Below are positions 1,981 through 63,824 of a stretch of 64,000 bases of DNA, one piece after another. The translations under genes were made by a program, and so were the position numbers. The notes beneath the pieces are model-generated. The model made no database searches and was not told the origin of the DNA. It was given only the letters and a program-made list of their open reading frames with translations. The stretch lies in the NCBI RefSeq assembly GCF_041886205.1, contig NZ_CP169029.1; one strand, written 5' to 3'. Position 1 is the first letter of the stretch, and every line of letters begins with the position of its first letter. Origin of the DNA: Escherichia coli (GTDB lineage Bacteria > Pseudomonadota > Gammaproteobacteria > Enterobacterales > Enterobacteriaceae).

Positions 1981-2745
1981 ATGGCGCATCGGCTACTCAT
2001 TGGTAAAGGAATGATCACCTTGAATCTCAAACGGATTTTTCTCACCCTCACCTTACTTCCCTTGTTTGCTGTTGCCGCTGATGATTGCGCACTCTCAGAT
2101 CCGACGCTGACCGTACAGGCGTATACCGTTAATCCTCAAACAGAGCGGGTGAAAATGTACTGGCAAAAAGCCAATGGCGAAGCGTGGGGAACGTTACATG
2201 CTCTGCTGGCGGATATGAATAGTCAGGGTCAGGTGCAGATGGCGATGAACGGCGGCATCTATGATGAAAGCTATGCGCCGCTCGGTTTGTACATCGAAAA
2301 CGGTCAGCAGAAGGTGGCGTTAAATCTCGCTTCAGGTGAAGGGAATTTCTTTATTCGTCCTGGCGGCGTGTTTTATGTCGCGGGAGATAAAGTCGGCATC
2401 GTTCGTCTGGATGCCTTTAAAGCCAGTAAAGAGATTCAGTTTGCGGTGCAGTCAGGGCCAATGTTGATGGAAAACGGTGTAATTAATCCGCGTATTCATC
2501 CCAACGTCGCCTCACGCAAAATTCGTAACGGTGTTGGGATTAATAAACATGGGAACGCCGTGTTTTTGTTGAGCCAGCAGGCAACAAATTTTTATGATTT
2601 TTCCTGTTATGCCAAAGCGAAACTGAACGTTGAGCAGCTGCTTTATCTTGATGGCACGATTTCACATATGTATATGAAAGGCGGGGCAATCCCGTGGCAA
2701 CGCTATCCTTTTGTCACCATGATTTCCGTCGAGCGGAAAGGTTAG
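1981..2745 (+). CDS. yigE: Exported protein YigE (DUF2233), signal peptide present
   Basis: ORF track 254 aa with N-terminal signal-like hydrophobic segment; located between corA and uvrD. Confidence 0.8.
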   Translation: MAHRLLIGKGMITLNLKRIFLTLTLLPLFAVAADDCALSDPTLTVQAYTVNPQTERVKMYWQKANGEAWGTLHALLADMNSQGQVQMAMNGGIYDESYAPLGLYIENGQQKVALNLASGEGNFFIRPGGVFYVAGDKVGIVRLDAFKASKEIQFAVQSGPMLMENGVINPRIHPNVASRKIRNGVGINKHGNAVFLLSQQATNFYDFSCYAKAKLNVEQLLYLDGTISHMYMKGGAIPWQRYPFVTMISVERKG

Positions 2746-2783: not shown

Positions 2784-2890
2784 TGCCGGAAGCGGCGTAA
2801 ACGCCTTATCCGGCCTACATGACGTTGCAATTTATTGAATCTGAATGATTTTTTAGGCCAAATAAGGTGCGCAGCACCGCATCCGGCAAC
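2784..2890. repeat. RIP/BIME-type element: two inverted REP (GCCGGATG...) copies flanking an IHF-like core cgttgcaatttattgaat
   Basis: Palindromic REP units readable directly; the same core recurs at 21311-21415. Confidence 0.8.
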
Positions 2891-2891
2891 G

Positions 2892-5054
2892 TTACACCGA
2901 CTCCAGCCGGGCGTAAGCTGCCACCAGCCATTTGATTCCCTGGCCCTGGAATGCCACCTGCAAACGGCTATGTTCGCCGCTGCCTTCCATATTGACGATA
3001 GTGCCTTCACCAAACTTAGCGTGGCGTACGCGCTGGCCGAGCTTGTAGCCGCTGTCGTTCTCGACCATCGGCGTACCCATCCGCTGATGGCTAACCGGGC
3101 GGCTTACCGTGGCGCGCAGGCGCACCTCTTCCACACACTCTTCCGGCAGCTCGCCAATAAAGCGCGACGGGCGATGGTAAACTTCTTTGCCATACAGACG
3201 GCGAGTTTCCGCGTAGGTCAGCGTCAGTTTCTGCATCGCGCGGGTTACACCAACGTAGGCCAGACGGCGTTCTTCTTCCAGACGCCCGCCTTCATCCAGC
3301 GACATCTGGCTTGGGAACATGCCCTCTTCCATACCAACGATAAACACCTGAGGAAACTCCAGACCTTTCGCCGAGTGTAGCGTCATCAACTGCACCGCAT
3401 CCTGCCAGGTATCCGCCTGCCCTTCACCTGCTTCCAGTGCCGCATGGGAGAGGAACGCCTGCAGCGGCATTAAATCTTCGTCTTCTTCGTTGTAGCTGAA
3501 CTGGCGCGTTGCCGTCACCAGTTCCTCTAAGTTTTCGATACGCGTCTGACCTTTTTCGCCCTTCTCCTGCTCGTACATGGTGCGCAGGCCGGAGTCTTTA
3601 ATTACCCGGTCAGTCTGTACATGCAGCGGCATATCGGCAGTTTCTTGCGCTAAGGCGTCGATTAATTCCATAAATCGCTGCAAGGCGCTGGCAGCTCGCC
3701 CGGCGAGCGCTTTTTCCTGCAACAGCTCACGACATGCCTGCCAGAGTGTTAACTGGCGATCGCGCGATGTCTGACGTACCACGTCCAGCGTCCGGTCACC
3801 AATACCCCGCGTTGGCGTATTCACCACACGCTCAAAGGCCGCGTCGTCGTTGCGGTTGGCAATCAGGCGCAGATACGAGAGCGCATCTTTGATTTCCTGG
3901 CGTTCGAAGAATCGCATCCCGCCGTAAATACGGTACGGCATACTGGCCTGCAATAACGCCTCTTCCAGTACACGCGACTGGGCGTTGCTGCGGTAGAGAA
4001 TGGCGCACTCGGCAAGCGCCCCGCCGTTGTCCTGCCAGGTTTTGATGCGGTTAACCACAAAACGCGCTTCATCGAGTTCGTTAAAAGCGCAATAGAGGGA
4101 AATAGGCTCACCGTCCGCGCCATCGGTCCACAGTTTTTTACCCAGACGCCCGTTATTGTTTTCAATCAGGGCGTTAGCGGCGCTCAGAATATTGCTGGTA
4201 GAGCGGTAGTTTTGCTCCAGACGAATAGTTTCGGCACCGGGGAAATCATTAAGGAAACGCTGAATATTCTCCACCTGCGCCCCGCGCCAGCCGTAGATTG
4301 ACTGGTCGTCATCACCGACGATCATCACTTTGCCGGTGTCGCCCGCCAGCAGGCGGATCCACGCGTACTGAATGTTGTTGGTATCCTGGAATTCGTCCAC
4401 CAGGATGTTGGTAAAACGTTCGCGGTAGTGTTGCAGGATATGCGGCTTGTTAAGCCACAGTTCGTGGGCGCGCAGCAGCAGCTCGGCGAAGTCCACCAGG
4501 CCCGCGCGGTCACACGCTTCCTGATACGCCTGATACACCTTCTGCCAGGTCTGCTCCACCGGATTACCGTAGCTTTGAATATGATGCGGACGCAGGCCTT
4601 CATCTTTCTGGCTGTTGATGTACCACATTGCCTGGCGCGGCGGCCACTGCTTCTCGTCGAGGTTCATGGCTTTGATCAGACGCTTAAGCAGGCGTAGCTG
4701 GTCTTCACTGTCGAGGATCTGGAAATCCTGCGGCAGATTGGCGTCCATATGGTGCGCACGCAGCAAACGATGCGCCAGCCCGTGGAAGGTGCCGACCCAC
4801 ATGCCGCCCTGGCTGGTGCCCATCAGTTGCCCGATACGATGACGCATTTCCGCCGCCGCTTTGTTGGTAAACGTCACCGCCATAATCGAGTATGGCGAGC
4901 AGTTTTCCACGCTCATCAGCCAGGCGATACGATGCACCAGTACGCGCGTCTTACCACTGCCCGCGCCCGCCAGCACCAGAAGGTTGCTGCGTGGCGCGGC
5001 CACCGCTTCGCGCTGTTTGTCGTTAAGGCTGTCGAGCAGGTAAGAAACGTCCAT
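2892..5054 (-). CDS. uvrD: DNA helicase II UvrD
   Basis: Translation begins MDVSYLLDSLNDKQREAV with Walker A AGAGSGKT; 720 aa after trimming the ORF-track N-terminal extension. Confidence 0.95.
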   Translation of the reverse strand: MDVSYLLDSLNDKQREAVAAPRSNLLVLAGAGSGKTRVLVHRIAWLMSVENCSPYSIMAVTFTNKAAAEMRHRIGQLMGTSQGGMWVGTFHGLAHRLLRAHHMDANLPQDFQILDSEDQLRLLKRLIKAMNLDEKQWPPRQAMWYINSQKDEGLRPHHIQSYGNPVEQTWQKVYQAYQEACDRAGLVDFAELLLRAHELWLNKPHILQHYRERFTNILVDEFQDTNNIQYAWIRLLAGDTGKVMIVGDDDQSIYGWRGAQVENIQRFLNDFPGAETIRLEQNYRSTSNILSAANALIENNNGRLGKKLWTDGADGEPISLYCAFNELDEARFVVNRIKTWQDNGGALAECAILYRSNAQSRVLEEALLQASMPYRIYGGMRFFERQEIKDALSYLRLIANRNDDAAFERVVNTPTRGIGDRTLDVVRQTSRDRQLTLWQACRELLQEKALAGRAASALQRFMELIDALAQETADMPLHVQTDRVIKDSGLRTMYEQEKGEKGQTRIENLEELVTATRQFSYNEEDEDLMPLQAFLSHAALEAGEGQADTWQDAVQLMTLHSAKGLEFPQVFIVGMEEGMFPSQMSLDEGGRLEEERRLAYVGVTRAMQKLTLTYAETRRLYGKEVYHRPSRFIGELPEECVEEVRLRATVSRPVSHQRMGTPMVENDSGYKLGQRVRHAKFGEGTIVNMEGSGEHSRLQVAFQGQGIKWLVAAYARLESV

Positions 5055-8515: not shown

Positions 8516-8703
8516 TATGGATTGCCTGTAAAGTTCATCGCTTTCTGCTTTCTATCATCGCAGGAGAAGGCGTAAAAGCAAGCGTTTAGCGACTCTTTAT
8601 GAAGTCTGAAAAGTGAGGAAATGCTGCGAGTATAACGCTTACTCGTGGGGATTTATGTTTTGCTGGTAGTTTCGTGATCGGCACCTCGCGCCAGGATGGC
8701 TTT

Positions 8704-10182
8704 ATGCACTATCGCAATGTGGTTTGTTTGTTGTCTTGTTCGTTGTTTTTATCGTCGGCATGGGGATGTCGGCTTGATGAGCCGGAACATAATATTTACC
8801 AGAAACAGGGAAAAGGCGTGGTGTACCTGCGCCCTTATAAAGAAACAAATCTTTCTCTACCTGACGTGAATTACAAGAGTTTGCGTCGTTTACCTAATTT
8901 ATTAATAGACGCAACAACACAAGATGAATGGAATAAAGAACCACCTCTGACTGATCTAACAACTGACAACCTCTATGAGGGCGCACAAGCCTGGTATCCC
9001 CATTACTCCTGGCATAGCGATGGTCGCTATATCCTCTACGCGGGTGAAGTAGTGCAAAATCCTCACGACGCACCACCCGTCGATATCGCCTCATTCAAGG
9101 CATGGGGAGATTTTGCCGCAGATAAACACAGTCTCTATTTTGAAGGCAAGCGCACCGATAACAATGGCGGGGGAAATCGCTTAGATATCAAAACACTGCA
9201 TCAGGTGGAATTCCGGCCTCCCTGGGATCCTGACTTACTGGGGCTGATATTACGTGACGCTAATTTCTTGTATATCAATGGGCATCGCCTCGCAGATCCC
9301 GATAGTTTCCGTGTGCTGGCACAAAAGTCATGGGATCAACGAGGAAAGTTTTCTACCGCGTTTAATCCCTGTGTGGCTATGCCATTTGGCCCATGGGATA
9401 CCCTGGCTCGTACACGGACCAAAATCCTGATCAACGGCGAACAGCTTGATGCCGACCCGGACACTTTTTCCGTCGTGCGCTGGATGCCCGGCTCACTCTT
9501 GACCTGGCGTGATAAAAACGGGCTGCAGCGTAAAGTCCTCGACAAGGAAAATCTGGCGTGGGATGAGGATTTAACAAAGCACTGTCTGGATTTTTCTCTG
9601 CTGGAAAAGAAAGTGTTCTGGCGTCGGGGGCCTGACTGTAAACAGGAAGAATTACCGGGACTCGATCCGGAACAGTTTCACCCCATCAGTGATGCTGTCG
9701 CACAGTATCAGGACTCGCTTTATACCATCATCGAAACAGAGTCTGGTGACCGCAAGCTGGAGATCGTGAAACTTGATGATCCTAATCTTATTATCAACAA
9801 ACGTTTCAACGCCGGGAAACGCCACGGCTATTTACTTACGCGTGCCGAAGGGTGGCCAAACCATTCCGGTTTACACGTGTTTGAATCTGATGGACCGCTG
9901 ATCTTACTGGATAACCGCTCTCCGGATGAACGCGAAGCCCATCTTAATGACCATCCCTTTTTGCGCAGATGGTATGCCCGCGATAACCGCTACGTTTACA
10001 GCTTTGATGGCGCGCAGCTCTGGCGATACCGCACCGCGGATCCGAAACAAGTTCGCTTAATCTGGAAGGAACAACATTCGGGATATGGCTATGGCGTAAA
10101 TTACAAAACGGGATATCTGGACGGAAAAATTACCGATGACGGCGAATTTATTCCTGCCCCGCGCAATGAGGCGACAAAATGA
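8704..10182 (+). CDS. Exported DKNYY-like repeat protein (paralog A), function unknown; start could be 8674 (GTG) or 8704 (ATG)
   Basis: ORF track 502 aa; N-terminal signal/lipoprotein-like segment (…LFLSSAWGC); repeated blocks such as VDIASFKAWGDFAADKHSLYF, RLADPDSF, DADPDTFSVV, ARDNRYVYSFDG; collinear similarity to the downstream ORF. Confidence 0.7.
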   Translation: MHYRNVVCLLSCSLFLSSAWGCRLDEPEHNIYQKQGKGVVYLRPYKETNLSLPDVNYKSLRRLPNLLIDATTQDEWNKEPPLTDLTTDNLYEGAQAWYPHYSWHSDGRYILYAGEVVQNPHDAPPVDIASFKAWGDFAADKHSLYFEGKRTDNNGGGNRLDIKTLHQVEFRPPWDPDLLGLILRDANFLYINGHRLADPDSFRVLAQKSWDQRGKFSTAFNPCVAMPFGPWDTLARTRTKILINGEQLDADPDTFSVVRWMPGSLLTWRDKNGLQRKVLDKENLAWDEDLTKHCLDFSLLEKKVFWRRGPDCKQEELPGLDPEQFHPISDAVAQYQDSLYTIIETESGDRKLEIVKLDDPNLIINKRFNAGKRHGYLLTRAEGWPNHSGLHVFESDGPLILLDNRSPDEREAHLNDHPFLRRWYARDNRYVYSFDGAQLWRYRTADPKQVRLIWKEQHSGYGYGVNYKTGYLDGKITDDGEFIPAPRNEATK

Positions 10183-11501
10183 ATGGTCAAATAATCACTG
10201 TTGCACTCATCCTGTTGGGGCACATATTTCTGACGCCTGCTGTACAGGCCATAGGGTTCGACTATTACAATGATCACGGTGTTATGTCTTACGGTAAAGG
10301 TTATGGGGAGGATGAGAAAATCATTGCCCAATTTCCGAAGATGAACAGAGCCGATTTGCGCCTTGTGACAAATATATCCGGGGAGCGGGAGTTGGTGGAA
10401 GGCTATATACCCACCGATGAAATAAGCATAAAAAATGAGGAATACCACTGGGTGACAGACGGCCGCGTTATTCTCTGGCGTGGCAAAATCGTTAGCAATC
10501 CACCGGGAACACCCACTGTCGATATTGCCAGCTTTCAGGCTATGGGCCGCTTCGCGGTCGATAAATATAGCCTCTATTTTGACGGACAGCGCACCGAAAG
10601 TAATAGCGGCGCGTCACGTGTTGATCTGGCGACACTAAAAGCTATCGAAGGTAACTCTACCACGCTGGTGGATAGTAAAAATCTCTATTTGTCCGGTCGA
10701 CGTCAGGGGAGCAGCAGTAATGTTACTGTATTAGAAAAAAGATGGTGGGGTATTAATCCACGTCTTATGAGTGTAAACAGAAATTTGTATTCCAATGATC
10801 TGCTTATCCGCAGTGGGCAGAATATTTATTTAAATGGCGTTCACCTTACGGCGAATGCAGACTCATTTGAGATAATTCGCTGGAGACCTCATTCACTGCT
10901 GGTTTTTCGCGACAATAAGGGTCTGCATCGTTATCCCTTTGGTCAATTATCAGGCAAGGCAATACCCGTAGATGATGACGTCTCTTTTGAAGTAGGGGAA
11001 AGTCGCGTTCGCTGGCGTAAACAGCTCACGTCCGACCGTCAGTGGAGCAAGTGGATAGACCTACCAGGTATTGAACCTGAACAATTCCATCTGATTACTG
11101 GCAATATTGCGCAGTATAAAGATCGTCTGTATGTAACAAAATTATCGACTTTTGGTGAAGACCAGCTTGAAATAATTCTGCTGGATTCGCCAGACCTGGT
11201 CATTGATAACTCATTTAATGGCGGCAAACAACATGTTTACTTTATCCGCCAATTACGGTCAAAGAGCGTGCAAATTATTCCAACTAACGGCCCGCTAATT
11301 AAAAACGATCGCTTCGCTTATGACGATCGCAATGTTTATACATGGACCGATACAGAGGTAAGGATTACGCCCTCCCCCTGCCCGGCGAAAACACACGTCA
11401 GAGAAGAGAATGTGCGTGAACTTCACAACAGAGACATTATTATTCCGTTGACGGATGAATCATGCCAGAACGCAGCAGACGAGCAAACTTTGAAGCCCTG
11501 A
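10179..11501 (+). CDS. Exported DKNYY-like repeat protein (paralog B), function unknown
   Basis: ORF track 440 aa; signal peptide MNGQIITVALILLGHIFLTPAVQA; start ATG overlaps upstream stop (ATGA); blocks VDIASFQAMGRFAVDKYSLYF, TANADSFEIIRW, DDRNVYTWTD paralogous to the upstream ORF; AT-rich. Confidence 0.7.
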   Translation: MNGQIITVALILLGHIFLTPAVQAIGFDYYNDHGVMSYGKGYGEDEKIIAQFPKMNRADLRLVTNISGERELVEGYIPTDEISIKNEEYHWVTDGRVILWRGKIVSNPPGTPTVDIASFQAMGRFAVDKYSLYFDGQRTESNSGASRVDLATLKAIEGNSTTLVDSKNLYLSGRRQGSSSNVTVLEKRWWGINPRLMSVNRNLYSNDLLIRSGQNIYLNGVHLTANADSFEIIRWRPHSLLVFRDNKGLHRYPFGQLSGKAIPVDDDVSFEVGESRVRWRKQLTSDRQWSKWIDLPGIEPEQFHLITGNIAQYKDRLYVTKLSTFGEDQLEIILLDSPDLVIDNSFNGGKQHVYFIRQLRSKSVQIIPTNGPLIKNDRFAYDDRNVYTWTDTEVRITPSPCPAKTHVREENVRELHNRDIIIPLTDESCQNAADEQTLKP

Positions 11502-11869: not shown

Positions 11870-11908
11870 GATTGCATGCCGGATAAGCCTCGCTTTCCGG
11901 CACGCTCA

Positions 11909-18987: not shown

Positions 18988-19194
18988 AAAAAAACGCCTG
19001 CTCTTATTACGGAGCAGGCGTTAAAACAGGTCTGTATGACAACAAGTGGGTGCTTCACTCAACGTTGTGTCCATGGTGTCTGATGAGGCATAAGCGACAT
19101 CTGTCAGTGGACGATAAGCACCGTAAACGGCTCTGCGTCATTCCGGAGTTTATGAGGCACTAAGGCGAACATAAGAGATAGAATGAGCATCTAC
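18988..19194 (-). ncRNA. glmZ: GlmZ small RNA (SraJ/RyiA), about 207 nt, with intrinsic terminator
   Basis: Minus-strand sequence starts GTAGATGCTCATTCCATCTCTTATG... and ends in hairpin AACGCCTGCTC...GAGCAGGCGTT plus U7; known location between hemY and aslA. Confidence 0.8.
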
Positions 19195-19618: not shown

Positions 19619-21274
19619 ATGGAATTTTCGTTTTCACCCAAACTTCTTGTTGTTGCTGTCGCCGCCGCTCTTCCTCTCATGGCCAGCGCAGCTGATACCC
19701 CGTCAACTGCCACCGCACGCAAAGGCTTTGCCGGATACGATCACCCAAACCAGTATCTGGTTAAACCGGCGACCACTATTGCCGACAACATGATGCCAGT
19801 AATGCAGCATCCGGCGCAGGATAAAGAAACCCAGCAGAAGCTGGCAGAACTTGAGAAAAAAACCGGTAAGAAGCCCAACGTAGTGATCTTTCTTCTGGAT
19901 GACGTGGGCTGGATGGACGTCGGCTTTAACGGCGGCGGCGTGGCAGTGGGTAACCCTACACCAGATATCGACGCCGTTGCCAGCCAGGGGCTGATTTTAA
20001 CTTCGGCGTATTCTCAACCAAGCTCTTCCCCAACCCGCGCCACCATTCTCACCGGACAATACTCCATCCACCACGGCATTCTGATGCCGCCAATGTACGG
20101 GCAACCGGGCGGGCTGCATGGGTTAACCACGCTGCCGCAGTTGCTGCACGATCAGGGCTACGTCACTCAGGCCATCGGGAAATGGCATATGGGAGAAAAC
20201 AAAGAGTCGCAGCCGCAGAACGTTGGCTTTGATGATTTCCGTGGCTTTAACTCGGTGTCTGATATGTACACCGAATGGCGCGACGTTCACGTAAACCCGG
20301 AAGTGGCCCTGAGTCCGGACCGTTCTGAATACATCAAGCAATTACCGTTCAGCAAAGATGACGTTCATGCAGTGCGCGGCGGCGAACAACAGGCCATTGC
20401 CGACATTACGCCGAAATATATGGAAGATCTGGATCAACGCTGGATGGACTATGGCGTTAAGTTCCTCGACAAGATGGCGAAGAGCGATAAGCCTTTCTTC
20501 CTCTATTACGGCACTCGCGGCTGTCACTTCGATAACTACCCGAACGCCAAATATGCGGGTAGCTCTCCGGCGCGCACCTCTTACGGCGACTGCATGGTGG
20601 AGATGAACGATGTGTTCGCTAATCTGTATAAAACACTGGAGAAAAACGGTCAGCTTGATAACACGCTGATCGTCTTTACCTCCGATAACGGACCGGAAGC
20701 CGAAGTACCGCCGCACGGACGCACACCGTTCCGTGGTGCGAAAGGTTCGACCTGGGAAGGCGGCGTTCGCGTACCGACTTTCGTTTACTGGAAAGGGATG
20801 ATCCAACCGCGTAAATCTGACGGTATTGTCGATCTGGCAGATCTCTTCCCTACCGCGCTGGATCTGGCAGGGCATCCTGGAGCGAAAGTGGCGAATTTAG
20901 TGCCGAAAACCACCTTTATCGATGGTGTGGACCAGACATCCTTCTTCCTGGGAACAAATGGTCAGTCTAACCGTAAGGCCGAGCACTACTTCCTCAACGG
21001 TAAACTCGCTGCTGTGCGTATGGATGAGTTCAAGTATCACGTCCTGATTCAGCAACCTTACGCTTATACCCAGAGCGGATATCAGGGTGGATTCACCGGC
21101 ACAGTAATGCAAACGGCGGGATCGTCGGTGTTTAACCTGTACACCGATCCGCAGGAAAGCGACTCTATCGGCGTGCGCCATATTCCGATGGGTGTACCGC
21201 TACAGACCGAAATGCACGCATATATGGAGATCCTGAAAAAATATCCACCACGCGCGCAGATTAAATCTGATTAA
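19619..21274 (+). CDS. aslA: Arylsulfatase AslA (Ser-type sulfatase, S-x-P-x-R motif), periplasmic
   Basis: 551 aa; signal peptide; sulfatase signature [13 protein letters not shown] around nt 20027-20045. Confidence 0.9.
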
Positions 21275-21310
21275 GCCGGCGCTATCGCTACATCGGGCCA
21301 CACTGACCTT

Positions 21311-21415
21311 GCCGGATGCGATGCTGACGCATCTTATCCGGCCTACAGAACGTTGCAATTTATTGAATTTGCAAGGATTGTAGGCCGGATAAGGCGTTCA
21401 CGCCGCATCCGGCAA
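21311..21415. repeat. RIP/BIME-type element (REP - IHF-like core cgttgcaatttattgaat - REP) between convergent aslA and aslB
   Basis: Near-identical to the element at 2784-2890. Confidence 0.8.
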
Positions 21416-21439: not shown

Positions 21440-22675
21440 CTACTTACTCACCACCAGCAAATGCGCCTGCATAATGTCGCTGGCCGGGCGACCGTGCGCC
21501 AGCAAATCAGCCATTGCTTTAAGATATGGCGGTAGATGGCGGAAATAACGCTGATATCCGGCACACAAATAATTCAGCCCCGGTTTGCCGCTGGCATCGA
21601 GCATGAAGCGGTGTTTCGGGCAGCCTCCCCAACATGCTTTTAACACGTTACAACTGCGACACTGCGCCGGTAACTGCTTAAATTTATCTTCACCAAACAC
21701 CTGCTGTTGCGGGGAATCGATCATTTCTGCAATTGTTTGCTGGTGCATATTCCCCAGCCGATATTGCGGATAAACATAGTGATCGCAGGCGTAAACGTCG
21801 CCGTTGTGCTCAACAATCACCGAGCGCCCACAGGTTGGCTGATGATGGCAAACCGCACCCGGCGCACCGACAAAATTGGCAAACGCCCATTCGATATTCA
21901 TCACGAAAATCTTGCCGACGTCGCGTTTGATCCAGTGGTCGAATATCGCCACCAGAAACTCACCGAACTCCTCGGGGCGCACCGACCATTCCGTTAGCTC
22001 ACCCTGAATATCACCAGGCGCATGTAACTTAAGTCCATCGCGGGCAGCTGTTTCATCAGCCAGGCGCTCGACCACCGGAATAAACTGGATGAATTCGACT
22101 CCCACATCGCACAAAAAATCATATACCTGCAACGGTTGCTGCGCGCTGGTGCGATTAACGCAGACCAGCACGTTATAGTCGACATGATGCTTTTGCAGCA
22201 GCTTCAAGGCACGCATCACCAGTTTATGCGTGGGTCTGCCGCCTTTGGTCACGCGATATTGATTGTGGATCTCAGCCGGACCATCCAGCGATAACCCAAC
22301 AAGAAAATGATTTTCTGCCAGAAATGCACACCATTCATCATCGAGCAGCACGCCGTTAGTCTGGAAGCTGTTACTTATCTTCCTGCCAGCACCATATTTC
22401 GCCTGTAGCGCCACGGCACGGCGGTAAAAATCCAGCCCGAGTAACGTTGGTTCGCCGCCCTGCCAGGTAAAAGCCACTTCGTTTTGGGTTTCGCTGGCGG
22501 CGATATAGTGACGGACATACGCTTCCAGCGTGTCATCGTCCATATGCGTGACTGGCTTTTCGCGGTAAATGGATTGTTTTTCGAGATAAAAACAGTAGTC
22601 ACAGTTCAGATTACAATCGGAACCGCTCGGTTTCGCCATCACATGAAAAGCACGCGTTGGAATCTGTTGCAGCAT
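21440..22675 (-). CDS. aslB: Anaerobic sulfatase-maturating enzyme homolog AslB (radical SAM)
   Basis: Translation MLQQIPTRAFHVMAKPSGSDCNLNCDYCFY (CxxxCxxC radical SAM motif) plus C-terminal Cys clusters; 411 aa. Confidence 0.9.
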   Translation of the reverse strand: MLQQIPTRAFHVMAKPSGSDCNLNCDYCFYLEKQSIYREKPVTHMDDDTLEAYVRHYIAASETQNEVAFTWQGGEPTLLGLDFYRRAVALQAKYGAGRKISNSFQTNGVLLDDEWCAFLAENHFLVGLSLDGPAEIHNQYRVTKGGRPTHKLVMRALKLLQKHHVDYNVLVCVNRTSAQQPLQVYDFLCDVGVEFIQFIPVVERLADETAARDGLKLHAPGDIQGELTEWSVRPEEFGEFLVAIFDHWIKRDVGKIFVMNIEWAFANFVGAPGAVCHHQPTCGRSVIVEHNGDVYACDHYVYPQYRLGNMHQQTIAEMIDSPQQQVFGEDKFKQLPAQCRSCNVLKACWGGCPKHRFMLDASGKPGLNYLCAGYQRYFRHLPPYLKAMADLLAHGRPASDIMQAHLLVVSK

Positions 22676-22822: not shown

Positions 22823-22899
22823 GGTCGGCGAGAGAGGATTCGAACCTCCGACCCACTGGTCCCAAACCAGTTGCGCTACCAAGCTGCGCTACTCGCCGA
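22823..22899 (-). tRNA. proM: tRNA-Pro (anticodon UGG)
   Basis: Minus strand reads TCGGCGAGTAGCGCAGCTTGGTAGCGCAACTGGTTTGGGACC...CCA-end; cloverleaf and anticodon loop identified. Confidence 0.9.
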
Positions 22900-22940
22900 A
22901 ATACTGCTTTTTGAATTTTTAGTTCAATTCTTTAAAGTCG

Positions 22941-23027
22941 TGGTGCGAGGGGGGGGACTTGAACCCCCACGTCCGTAAGGACACTAACACCTGAAGCTAG
23001 CGCGTCTACCAATTCCGCCACCTTCGC
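22941..23027 (-). tRNA. leuT: tRNA-Leu (anticodon CAG), long variable arm
   Basis: Minus strand GCGAAGGTGGCGGAATTGGTAGACGCG...CTTCAGGTG...CACCA. Confidence 0.9.
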
Positions 23028-23047
23028 ATTGTCACAACTTCTAATAA

Positions 23048-23124
23048 TGGGGTGGCTAATGGGATTCGAACCCACGACAACTGGAATCACAATCCAGGGC
23101 TCTACCAACTGAGCTATAGCCACC
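23048..23124 (-). tRNA. hisR: tRNA-His (anticodon GUG) with extra 5' G
   Basis: Minus strand GGTGGCTATAGCTCAGTTGGTAGAGC...GATTGTGATTC...CCA. Confidence 0.9.
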
Positions 23125-23181
23125 ACTACAAATCTTGTTACGCGGTATTACTACCACCGCAGCTCAAGCGCCGGGACTAAA

Positions 23182-23258
<77 letters not shown>

Positions 23259-39542: not shown

Positions 39543-39872
39543 TTACGCCAGGTTAGCGTCGAGGAACTCTTTCAACTGACCTTTAGACAGTGCACCCACT
39601 TTGGTTGCCGCCACTTCACCGTTTTTGAACAGCAGCAGAGTCGGGATACCACGGATGCCATATTTCGGCGCAGTGCCAGGGTTTTGATCGATGTTCAGTT
39701 TTGCAACGGTCAGTTTGCCCTGATATTCGTCAGCGATTTCATCCAGAATCGGGGCGATCATTTTGCACGGACCGCACCACTCTGCCCAGAAATCGACGAG
39801 GATCGCCCCGTCCGCTTTGAGTACATCCGTGTCAAAACTGTCGTCAGTCAGGTGAATAATTTTATCGCTCAT
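39543..39872 (-). CDS. trxA: Thioredoxin 1
   Basis: [37 protein letters not shown] (WCGPC active site); 109 aa. Confidence 0.97.
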
Positions 39873-40002
39873 ATATAACTCCACAGGAATAAGCCTGGCG
39901 TGTTGGTTTCGTTGTTGGTGTAACATTAACCAACTAAAGGTTGACTTTATTTCACCGGATACGCTTTCGTAAAGCAATAGTAAGCTGATATTCTACCACA
40001 CT

Positions 40003-42894: not shown

Positions 42895-42930
42895 TGCCGG
42901 ATGCGATGCTGACGCATCTTTTCCGGCCTT
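42895..42930. repeat. REP-like palindromic unit between convergent gppA and rep
   Basis: gccggatgcgatgctgacgcatc...ccggcc palindrome. Confidence 0.6.
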
Positions 42931-42932
42931 GA

Positions 42933-44954
42933 TTATTTCCCTCGTTTTGCCGCCATCATCGCTTTCAGATTCGCCAGATGGCTTTGCCCTTTCTGCATCC
43001 GTTCTTCGGCGCTGACCACTTTGCGCTCCTGTTCCCAAATCAGATCATCCTGCGGCAGCTCCAGCAAAAAGCGGCTCGGCTCCGGGCGCACCAGCTCGCC
43101 GTACTGACGGCGTTCTTTACACAGCGTAAAGGTCAATTCCTTCTGGGCGCGGGTAATGCCGACATAGGCCAGCCGCCGCTCCTCATCGATATTATCTTCA
43201 TCGATGCTGCTCTGGTGCGGCAAAAACCCTTCTTCCATACCGACCATGTAGACATAAGGAAACTCCAGCCCTTTTGACGCGTGCAGAGTCATCAGTTGCA
43301 CCTGATCCAGCTCTTCTTCACTCTCACCACGCTCCATCATGTCGCGCAAAGTAAAGCGCGTCACCACCTGGGTGAGCGTCATCGGCTCATCCAGTTCGCT
43401 GCCTTCCAGCATCTCCGTCATCCAGCTAAACAGTTGGTTGACGTTCTTCATGCGCATTTCGGCAGCTTTCGGGCTGGGCGATGTTTCGTACAGCCAGGAT
43501 TCATAATCCATGCCGTGGATCAGATCGCGCACCGCGGCAATCGGCTCCCGCTCCGCCAGACGCTGAATTTCTGCCAACCAGTGAGTGAAGCGGGTCAATG
43601 CTTCATAACCACGTCCGCTAAGCGTCTGACTCAGGCCCATATCAAAGCTGGCGGTAAACATGCTTTTATTGCGCGTCATCGCCCACTCACCCAGCTTTTT
43701 CAGCGTAGCCGGGCCAATCTCTCGCTTCGGCGTGTTAACGATACGCAGAAATGCGCTGTCATCGTCCGGGTTAGTCAGCACGCGCAGATAAGCCAGCAAG
43801 TCCTTGATTTCAGGACGAGAGAAAAACGACGTACCACCAGAAATTTTGTACGGGATGCGGTTTTGCATCAGGAATTTTTCAAACACCCGCGACTGATGGT
43901 TACCGCGATAAAGAATGGCGTAATCTTTGTACTGCGTTTTATTGACGAAGTGATGGGCGATCAGCTCGCCAGTAACGCGCTCGGCTTCATGTTCCTCGTT
44001 ATTCGCGCTTAAAACTTTTAGCTCTGTGCCGTAACCCAGTTCGGAGAACAGACGCTTTTCAAAGACGTGCGGATTATTGGCGATCAGGATGTTCGCCGCT
44101 TTCAAAATACGTCCGGAAGAGCGGTAGTTCTGCTCAAGCTTAATCACCTTCAGCGCCGGAAAATCCTGACTCAGCAGCACCAGGTTTTGTGGACGTGCAC
44201 CGCGCCAGGAGTAGATCGACTGGTCGTCATCGCCCACCACGGTAAAGCGCGCGCGGCTGCCCACCAGCAGTTTCACCAGTTCATACTGGCTGGTGTTGGT
44301 GTCCTGATACTCATCCACCAGCAGGTAGCGAATTTTGTTCTGCCAGCGCTCGCGGACTTCTTCATTGCGTTGCAGCAGCAACGTCGGCAATAAAATCAGA
44401 TCATCGAAGTCGAGAACGTTACAGGCTTTCAGGTGTGCATCATACAGCCCATAACAATGGGCAAAAATACGGTCCCGCTCGCCAATCGCACTGGCTGCCG
44501 CCTGGGACGGTGTTTTGAGATCGTTCTTCCAGTTAGAGATGGTCGAAATCAACTGTTGCAGGAGAACTTTGTCATCTTCAATCAGCCCTTCGGTCAACTC
44601 TTTGAGCAACGCCAGCTGATCGGTATCGTCAAACAGCGAAAAGTTCGCCTTCATCCCAAGCGCCGCATACTCGCGTTTGATGATATCCAACCCCAGCGTG
44701 TGAAAAGTGGAGATCATCAGCCCGCGCGCCTCTTTGCGACCCAGCGTCTGCCCGACACGCTCTTTCATCTCGCGCGCCGCCTTATTGGTAAAGGTCACCG
44801 CCGCGATATGTCGCGCCTGATAACCGCAACCGCGGATCAGATGGGCGATTTTATTGGTGATCACACGAGTTTTACCGGAACCCGCGCCCGCCAGCACCAG
44901 GCAGGGGCCGGTAACGAATTCGACAGCTTGTTGTTGGCCGGGGTTTAGACGCAT
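42933..44954 (-). CDS. rep: ATP-dependent DNA helicase Rep
   Basis: [31 protein letters not shown]...; UvrD/Rep superfamily 1 helicase; 673 aa. Confidence 0.95.
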
Positions 44955-58600: not shown

Positions 58601-58676
58601 TGGCAGGGGCGGAGAGACTCGAACTCCCAACACCCGGTTTTGGAGACCGGTGCTCTACCAATTGAACTACGCCCCT
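58601..58676 (-). tRNA. trpT: tRNA-Trp (anticodon CCA)
   Basis: Minus strand AGGGGCGTAGTTCAATTGGTAGAGCACCGGTCTCCAAAACCGGG...CCA. Confidence 0.9.
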
Positions 58677-58684
58677 AATTAGGG

Positions 58685-58761
58685 TGGCGGAACGGACGGG
58701 ACTCGAACCCGCGACCCCCTGCGTGACAGGCAGGTATTCTAACCGACTGAACTACCGCTCC
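58685..58761 (-). tRNA. aspT: tRNA-Asp (anticodon GUC)
   Basis: Minus strand GGAGCGGTAGTTCAGTCGGTTAGAATACCTGCCTGTCACGCAGG...CCA. Confidence 0.9.
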
Positions 58762-58813
58762 ACCGAATTCTTTTACAACCACCGGTTTTATGACCGGCTT
58801 ACTGCTTAATTTG

Positions 58814-58933
58814 ATGCCTGGCAGTTCCCTACTCTCGCATGGGGAGACCCCACACTACCATCGGCGCTACGGCGTTTCACTTCTGAGTTCGGCATGGGGT
58901 CAGGTGGGACCACCGCGCTACGGCCGCCAGGCA
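58814..58933 (-). rRNA. rrfC: 5S ribosomal RNA
   Basis: Minus strand begins TGCCTGGCGGC...GTGGTCCCACCTGACCCCATGCCGAACTCAGAAGTGAAACGCCGTAGCGCCGATGG and ends ...AACTGCCAGGCAT. Confidence 0.95.
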
Positions 58934-59025
58934 AATTCTTTTTTATCAGACCGCTTCTGCGTTCTGATTTAATCTGTATCAGGCTGAAAATCTTCTCTCA
59001 TCCGCCAAAACACCTTCGGCGTTGT

Positions 59026-61928
<2,903 letters not shown>

Positions 61929-62121
61929 TCACAACCCGAAGATGTTTCTTACGATTCATCATCGTGTTGCGAAAATTTGAGAGACTCACGAACAACTTTC
62001 GTTGTTCAGTGTTTCAATTTTCAGCTTGATCCAGATTTTTAAAGAGCAAATATCTCAAACATCACCCGAAGATGAGTTTTGAGATATTAAGGCAGGTGAC
62101 TTTCACTCACAAACCAGCAAG

Positions 62122-62197
62122 TGGCGTCCCCTAGGGGATTCGAACCCCTGTTACCGCCGTGAAAGGGCGGTGTCCTGGGCCTCTAGACGAAGGGGAC
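62122..62197 (-). tRNA. gltU: tRNA-Glu (anticodon UUC) in 16S-23S spacer
   Basis: Minus strand GTCCCCTTCGTCTAGAGGCCCAGGACACCGCCCTTTCACGGCGG...GACGCCA. Confidence 0.9.
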
Positions 62198-62282
62198 GTA
62201 TCAGTCTGCTTCGCAAGACGCCTTGCTTTTCACTTTCTATCAGACAATCTGTGTGAGCACTGCAAAGAACGCTTCTTTAAGG

Positions 62283-63824
<1,542 letters not shown>

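Follow-up and report, generated by a model that had tools for sequence, protein, structure and literature searches.

The DNA analysed here, referred to below as the window, is a 64-kb stretch of Escherichia coli sequence. It aligns in reverse orientation to positions 3,941,632-4,003,035 of K-12 MG1655 with 96.8-98.6% identity, and several sequenced isolates are 100% identical to it over the stretches queried. Two repeat elements, A and B, lie in it between convergent genes, whose names were taken from MG1655 and other RefSeq annotations. Element A (2784-2888) is found in the 146-bp spacer between yigE (1981-2745, plus strand) and uvrD (2892-5054, minus strand), and element B (21310-21414) in the 165-bp spacer between aslA (19619-21274, plus strand) and aslB (21440-22675, minus strand). 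K-12 MG1655 carries orthologous copies of both elements at the corresponding positions. An earlier, sequence-only reading of this DNA had located both elements and named the two flanking gene pairs correctly.

Several other features of the window deserve mention. A 2.57-kb segment (8861-11427) is missing in K-12 MG1655 (breakpoint 3,994,183/4); it covers most of two tandem open reading frames (8674-10182 and 10179-11501, plus strand) upstream of cyaY, both with weak matches to the DKNYY family (PF13644). Gathering-score matches to Rfam were obtained on the minus strand for the GlmZ sRNA (18988-19194), the trxA 5' UTR thermometer (39843-39942), the 'Rev39' 5' UTR family ahead of the ilv operon (55093-55382) and the rrnC operon, tRNAs included (58604-63824), and no Rfam family covers element A or element B. 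The argX-hisR-leuT-proM tRNA cluster lies at 22825-23258. Direct repeats of 66-116 nt and 72-85% identity, at a constant offset of about 39.9 kb, connect 3290-5000 with 43196-44900; they reflect the paralogy of the helicase genes uvrD and rep and are no repeat elements.

Anatomy of the two REP doublets

REPs of E. coli are imperfect palindromes of 30-40 nt with a conserved GTAG/CTAC tetranucleotide at the foot (PMC3333891). Elements A and B each contain two inverted palindromic units flanking a common core, as the sequence-only reading had described. The 18-mer CGTTGCAATTTATTGAAT lies at 2823-2840 in A and at 21351-21368 in B, on the plus strand in both, and an exact search of the 64 kb found it exactly twice, against 0.06 occurrences expected. 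A REP profile built from the window's own units recovers all four units of A and B with E values of 3.5e-9 to 9.6e-9; three have an intact foot and the fourth a degenerate one, and all fold with -17 to -21.5 kcal/mol. Units were typed by comparing each with consensus sequences from a metagenome family sample, in which Y, short Z and long Z types were distinguished. The short Z type is the one that we take to be called Z1, on the basis of this sample.

In element A, the left unit (A-left, TGCCGGAAGCGGCGTAAACGCCTTATCCGGCCTAC, 2784-2818, plus strand) is of the Y type: it reads GCCGGAAG, is 94% identical to the Y consensus (REP profile E = 8.9e-9) and folds with -17.5 kcal/mol. It is followed by a 34-nt L spacer (2819-2852, plus strand) with the core TGCAATTTATTGAAT at 2826-2840, within the 18-mer in common with B; the L profile introduced below matches 2822-2851 with E = 5.8e-4. 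A predicted IHF site, ATTCAATAAATTG, occupies 2828-2840 on the minus strand, with one mismatch to the consensus WATCAANNNNTTR, and falls inside a 16-nt block with 87-98% conservation across family members. The right unit (A-right, TGCCGGATGCGGTGCTGCGCACCTTATTTGGCCTAA, 2853-2888, minus strand; E = 9.6e-9) is divergent, being 78% identical to the Y, 76% to the long Z and 69% to the short Z consensus. Its foot is degenerate, with TTTGGCCTAA in place of TCCGGCCTAC, and it ends in GGCCTAA, whereas the other three units end in GGCCTAC. Compared with the left unit of B, its inner stem carries a compensated change from GATGC/GCATC to GGTGC/GCACC, as read from the sequence. The stop codon of uvrD (TAA, 2894-2892) is so near that the A-right stem starts 4 nt past it, the first paired base being 2887.

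Element B begins with a unit containing the long stem-loop GCGATGCTGACGCATC (B-left, 21310-21346, plus strand; E = 3.5e-9), which is 86% identical to the long Z, 85% to the Y and 76% to the short Z consensus and carries the G/C pair typical of Y. Its L spacer measures 33 nt (21347-21379, plus strand), with the core TGCAATTTATTGAAT at 21354-21368, an L profile match at 21349-21378 (E = 6e-6) and a predicted IHF-like site on the minus strand (ATTCAATAAATTG, 21356-21368), again one mismatch away from WATCAANNNNTTR. The right unit (B-right, TGCCGGATGCGGCGTGAACGCCTTATCCGGCCTAC, 21380-21414, minus strand; E = 4.2e-9) is a perfect Y, 100% identical to the consensus. The description of the two elements as near-identical must be corrected: their pairwise global identity is 78% in either orientation. 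What does align closely is a stretch of 39 nt (2805-2843 against 21333-21371) with 92% identity.

Solitary REP-like units had also been proposed at three other places, and two of these are borne out. The first (42895-42931, plus strand; E = 2e-7), in the convergent gpp/rep spacer, is of the B-left type and 97% identical to B-left, with the same long stem-loop GCGATGCTGACGCATC, the Y-typical G/C pair and a degenerate tail (CCTTG). The second (48718-48748, minus strand; E = 1.9e-4), proposed from 48716 onwards, lies in the convergent ilvY/ilvA spacer and is 94% identical to the short Z consensus. The third candidate, near 11880 in the convergent cyaA/cyaY spacer, was rejected, with a profile E value of 1.4 and no unit consensus to which its identity exceeds 69%. 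This G+C-rich hairpin (11878-11901) resembles a REP stem in shape, has no foot and is probably an ordinary shared 3' hairpin. All four REP-bearing spacers of the window thus separate convergent genes, and every copy in the window is intergenic. This fits the location at 3' ends of transcription units given for the BIME-1/RIP/RIB class in published work.

Relation to known REP elements

In the published scheme, BIME-1 is a single pair of one Y and one Z1 unit in inverse orientation with a long, well-conserved L linker, frequently with an IHF site, BIME-2 consists of Y and Z2 units in tandem, and other combinations are termed 'atypical' (PMC3333891, PMC1187871). The IHF site is carried by the L linker (PMC3333891). 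A family sample was collected from metagenome contigs by requiring any unit foot, then 20-45 nt, then an inverted Y unit, the spacer sequence being left unconstrained. Of 55 distinct spacers (31-37 nt), 53 have one common core that is always oriented alike with respect to Y, and the remaining two are weak, non-L sequences. The spacer consensus is ATGGGTACTGCAATATATTGAATTTGCACGATTTT, and its conserved 16-nt block covers the IHF motif. An earlier scan of a genome collection with the exact 15-mer core had returned only 29 loci, because this T-variant of the core is a minority form.

A profile of these 55 independent spacers matches the window in exactly two places, elements B and A, both on the plus strand, and no third match below E = 0.6 occurs in the 64 kb. 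The architecture proposed by the sequence-only reading, REP units around a spacer with an IHF site, is thereby recovered from sequences outside the window, and both spacers are, by sequence, genuine L spacers. The IHF motif had been proposed as a further check, and a one-mismatch match is indeed present in both spacers, the mismatch of ATTCAATAAATTG to WATCAANNNNTTR being identical to that of the family consensus. The motif itself carries no statistical weight, as the window contains 52 matches against 47 expected, and the IHF assignment therefore rests on family membership and the literature.

The family sample also reveals how the two elements depart from the common form. At least 44 of the 55 members pair the Y unit with a short Z unit, and three pair it with a long unit of the G/C type. 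Element B obeys the family polarity, its L core pointing to Y, but has an unusual partner unit. Element A has its Y unit across the spacer from where the family has it, and none of the 55 sampled members shows this arrangement. The polarity rule (53 of 55 spacers) was derived in this analysis and is not a published criterion; B conforms to a fixed polarity of L relative to Y and A does not.

Judged by these sequence features, A and B belong to the BIME-1/RIP/RIB class of REP doublets with an L spacer (Gilson, Bachellier, Hofnung; Oppenheim 1993; Boccard and Prentki 1993), a kind familiar since the early 1990s, whose members in E. coli K-12 have been on record for thirty years. They have in common with it the inverted, tail-to-tail units with CTAC/GTAG feet, the conserved spacer of about 34 nt that contains an IHF consensus, the single and extragenic occurrence at 3' ends of transcription units and the presence or absence among isolates. 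The layout is that of BIME-1, with inverted units, an L linker of 34 or 33 nt, a single copy and no tandem iteration, and the IHF consensus inside the spacer (as a sequence match) and the position between convergent genes are those of RIP/RIB elements. The units are extragenic and highly repeated, as REP/PU sequences are: in megablast searches of 5,425 E. coli genomes the median number of unit copies per genome was 13-14 with element A as query and, among the matches listed, at least 39-40 with element B. Neither element has the strict BIME-1 pairing of one Y and one Z1. The canonical member combines a short Z1 with Y, whereas B combines a long Y/Z hybrid with Y, and A combines Y with a divergent unit, with Y on the opposite spacer side. 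Under the published scheme both would thus be called 'atypical BIMEs' carrying L and not textbook BIME-1. Because the pairing is non-canonical in both and A breaks the polarity, behaviour measured on canonical members may not transfer to them.

Two other known systems invite comparison. BIME-2 elements (Y and Z2 units with S, l, r or s linkers, in tandem, associated with gyrase and with HU/naRNA) belong to the same palindromic-unit family, including Y. They are, however, tandemly iterated, lack the L spacer and bind gyrase, whereas A and B are single, carry L and show neither the Y + Z2 composition nor the short S linker and tandem arrangement of BIME-2. REPINs, which are mobilised by RAYTs (Bertels and Rainey 2011; Nunvar 2010; Ton-Hoang 2012), likewise are inverted REP pairs that form one long hairpin and vary in presence among members of a population, and collapsed alleles in the form of outer-arm palindromes recall REPIN excision in Pseudomonas (PMC3337134). 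Unlike Pseudomonas REPINs, whose spacers are all different (PMC3337134), A and B have a highly conserved spacer with a predicted protein-binding site. No RAYT gene was found in the 64-kb window. E. coli K-12 has tnpA-REP, and TnpA-REP cleaves and recombines BIMEs in vitro (PMC3333891).

There is nothing new in the finding of such elements as such. The gain over the sequence-only reading lies in corrected unit types, polarity and identity and in the removal of the claim on gyrase discussed below. The departures from the textbook, namely the lack of a Z1 unit, the reversal of spacer polarity seen in A and the inversion polymorphism of B, are minor variations.

Alternative alleles and the nature of the elements

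The two loci were compared across 5,425 complete E. coli genomes. Of these, 3,011 have element A in the uvrD 3' spacer and 2,413 have an alternative arrangement, which together account for 5,424 of the 5,425. In the 2,413 genomes without A, a 300-aa (0.9-kb) SAM-hydroxide-adenosyltransferase gene (PF01887/PF20257) lies between yigE (or ysgD) and uvrD. Behind the gene stands the short palindrome GCCGGATGCGGTG-loop-CACCGCATCCGGC, which is perfect and has arms and outer flanks equivalent to those on the outside of element A. Some of the 2,413 genomes lack yigE as well. A descent of A-right from the end of the SAM-hydrolase gene was considered on the strength of a shared motif, AAG/ATAAGGTGC, which is indistinguishable from an ordinary REP tail. 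The alternative alleles still have a hairpin 3-14 nt from the uvrD stop codon. When a synthetic flipped form of A was used as query, the best match was 83% and no flipped form was found; A, with its degraded arms, is therefore fixed in one orientation. On a metagenome contig 87-92% identical to the window, which has no yigE, uvrD is directly followed by a different REP doublet with a 22-nt spacer, units of the GATGGCG type and no L motif; in this related organism the uvrD 3' spacer has therefore undergone an independent colonisation.

Shares at locus B are approximate, being drawn from an evenly spaced sample of ranked genomes: about 40% carry the full element, about 10% a single Y unit and about 17% an outer-arm palindrome. 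By direct count, 1,730 of the 5,425 genomes (32%) have a deletion of about 1.5 kb (window 19757-21346) that removes aslA codons ~47-551 and ends on the right in the foot of the left unit, so that the spacer and Y remain as a half element, with a TATC microhomology at the junction. The collapsed alleles of the aslA-aslB spacer were seen in strains GF60 and 14EC020. The outer-arm palindrome equals the unflipped full element B minus the sequence between two CGCATC direct repeats, and the single-Y allele, which lacks the CTAC foot, equals a flipped B minus the sequence between two ATCCGGC repeats. Perfect outer-arm palindromes have been interpreted in Pseudomonas as REPIN excision products by Bertels and Rainey (PMC3337134). 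The collapsed alleles can be explained by replication slippage between the 6-7-nt direct repeats, with no transposase, and equally well as excision. Presence or absence of BIME-1 among isolates has already been reported (PMC1187871, citing Bachellier 1997). What the comparison adds is a quantified picture of repeat behaviour: element A and the SAM-hydroxide-adenosyltransferase gene as alternative occupants of the uvrD spacer and, at locus B, collapsed palindromes, an aslA deletion ending in a REP tail and an in-place inversion.

At each locus, a third to a half of the E. coli genomes are without an intact copy, and both elements are therefore dispensable; that they are dispensable and structurally unstable within the species favours the view of them as largely selfish REP doublets. 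We hold with considerable confidence that A and B are enterobacterial REP doublets with an L spacer, probably handled by RAYT, for which effects of IHF and of 3' hairpins are secondary. In short, they are most likely RAYT-type selfish REP doublets with an IHF site. They would persist mainly as non-autonomous, REPIN-like elements by means of a single-copy REP-associated Y1 transposase (TnpA-REP/RAYT) and would decay when sequence between their own repeats is excised or lost by slippage. As double-stranded DNA they would offer an IHF bending site between convergent transcription units, and once transcribed, the gene-proximal unit would form a 3' stem-loop that stops 3'-5' exonucleases. Such effects on the host would be incidental or, at most, under weak selection, and would not explain why the elements exist.

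Predicted RNA structures are more stable for B (-71.9 and -75.2 kcal/mol) than for A (-44.7 and -52.7 kcal/mol), and none of 200 shuffled sequences folds as well (z scores: B, -7.9 and -8.4; A, -3.3 and -5.3); as DNA, the z scores are -10.7 for B and -3.0 for A. In the predicted RNA and DNA structures alike, the two units pair arm to arm into a hairpin of about 105 nt with the spacer at its tip. REP stem-loops define the protected 3' ends of many Rho-terminated mRNAs (PMC6061677), in keeping with the position of A and B between convergent genes, and the protection of mRNA 3' ends that had been suggested for A and B is plausible.

The same hairpins raise the question whether A and B are bidirectional terminators or attenuators of the convergent gene pairs, selected by the host and only incidentally similar to REPs. 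They lie exactly between convergent genes with strong hairpins on both strands, the alleles without an element keep a perfect hairpin beside uvrD and aslB, which suggests that some hairpin is needed, and BIMEs have been linked to transcription attenuation (Espeli et al. 2001). A simple terminator scan flagged a single weak terminator-like site on the uvrD strand of A-right, where the inner stem is followed by UUAUUUGG, but 0.8 such sites were expected, and none was found in element B. Moreover, the units are without U-tracts, a terminator would have no use for the conserved 16-nt core of the spacer, and the same sequences occur dozens of times per genome, as befits a repeat family and not a locus-specific signal. 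We consider host-selected terminators an unlikely account of the elements.

The uvrD side of element A lends itself to a different explanation, in which A-right acts mainly on translation, its stem stalling the terminating ribosome and lowering UvrD output. The distance from stop codon to stem is 4 nt for uvrD, from the TAA at 2894-2892 to the first paired base at 2887, and a hairpin 3-14 nt from the stop is kept in the alternative uvrD alleles. According to PMC12306157, which cites Liang, Rudd and Deutscher 2015, almost one in two E. coli REPs is able to stall ribosomes immediately before the termination codon. The mechanism is, however, inapplicable to yigE, aslA and aslB, where the corresponding distances are 39, 36 and 25 nt. 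As the main role of A-right this appears rather doubtful to us. As a side effect of a selfish REP doublet, the A-right stem could also interfere with translation termination at uvrD.

The sequence-only reading had further suggested that both elements may provide DNA gyrase sites. Convergent transcription accumulates positive supercoils, which gyrase binding and cleavage at A and B would relieve, and REP DNA binds gyrase in vitro (Yang and Ames 1988, as cited in PMC6379681). Genome-wide, however, gyrase cleavage sites are enriched in BIME-2 (Y and Z2, in tandem), unreported for BIME-1 and slightly depleted at IHF sites (PMC6379681). Since A and B are single, with an L spacer instead of S, and are not BIME-2, the evidence concerns another class; we have withdrawn the suggestion and regard a gyrase-site function as highly improbable.

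Inversion of element B

Both orientations of element B occur on identical flanks. The order is long unit, spacer, Y in the window, K-12, O157:H7 and Nissle, whereas EC42405, E. coli E69 (which represents a species of its own in the genome collection), E. whittamii and a more distant relative from a metagenome have Y, reversed spacer, long unit. Element B of the window matches the reverse complement of the EC42405 element at 102 of 105 positions, compared with 86 of 111 in the direct alignment. With a diagnostic 95-nt query, the flipped form was found at 97.9-100% identity in at least 40 genomes, many of them O145:H28. We considered whether element B of the window is a recent flip of an EC42405-type allele; it has three differences both from that reverse complement and from the unflipped element of Nissle, so that recent inversion and recombination are indistinguishable.

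The terminal or the inner inverted arms could serve as the sites of inversion, whether through recombination, through template switching or through excision and reinsertion by RAYT, and inversion would switch both the polarity of the asymmetric IHF site and which unit caps which mRNA. The REPIN papers and more recent BIME papers searched contained no description of in-place inversion. BIME-1 elements in general may be small invertible DNA segments, a speculative idea to which we give only a small chance. If true, inversion of BIME-1 would be a source of heritable, reversible local variation, and if it were frequent or driven by an enzyme, it would offer a handle on the processing of REP doublets in vivo. 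A further variant of this locus was seen on a metagenome contig 88-90% identical to the window, where B and about 29 nt of its flank are tandemly duplicated, although the class is described as single-copy.
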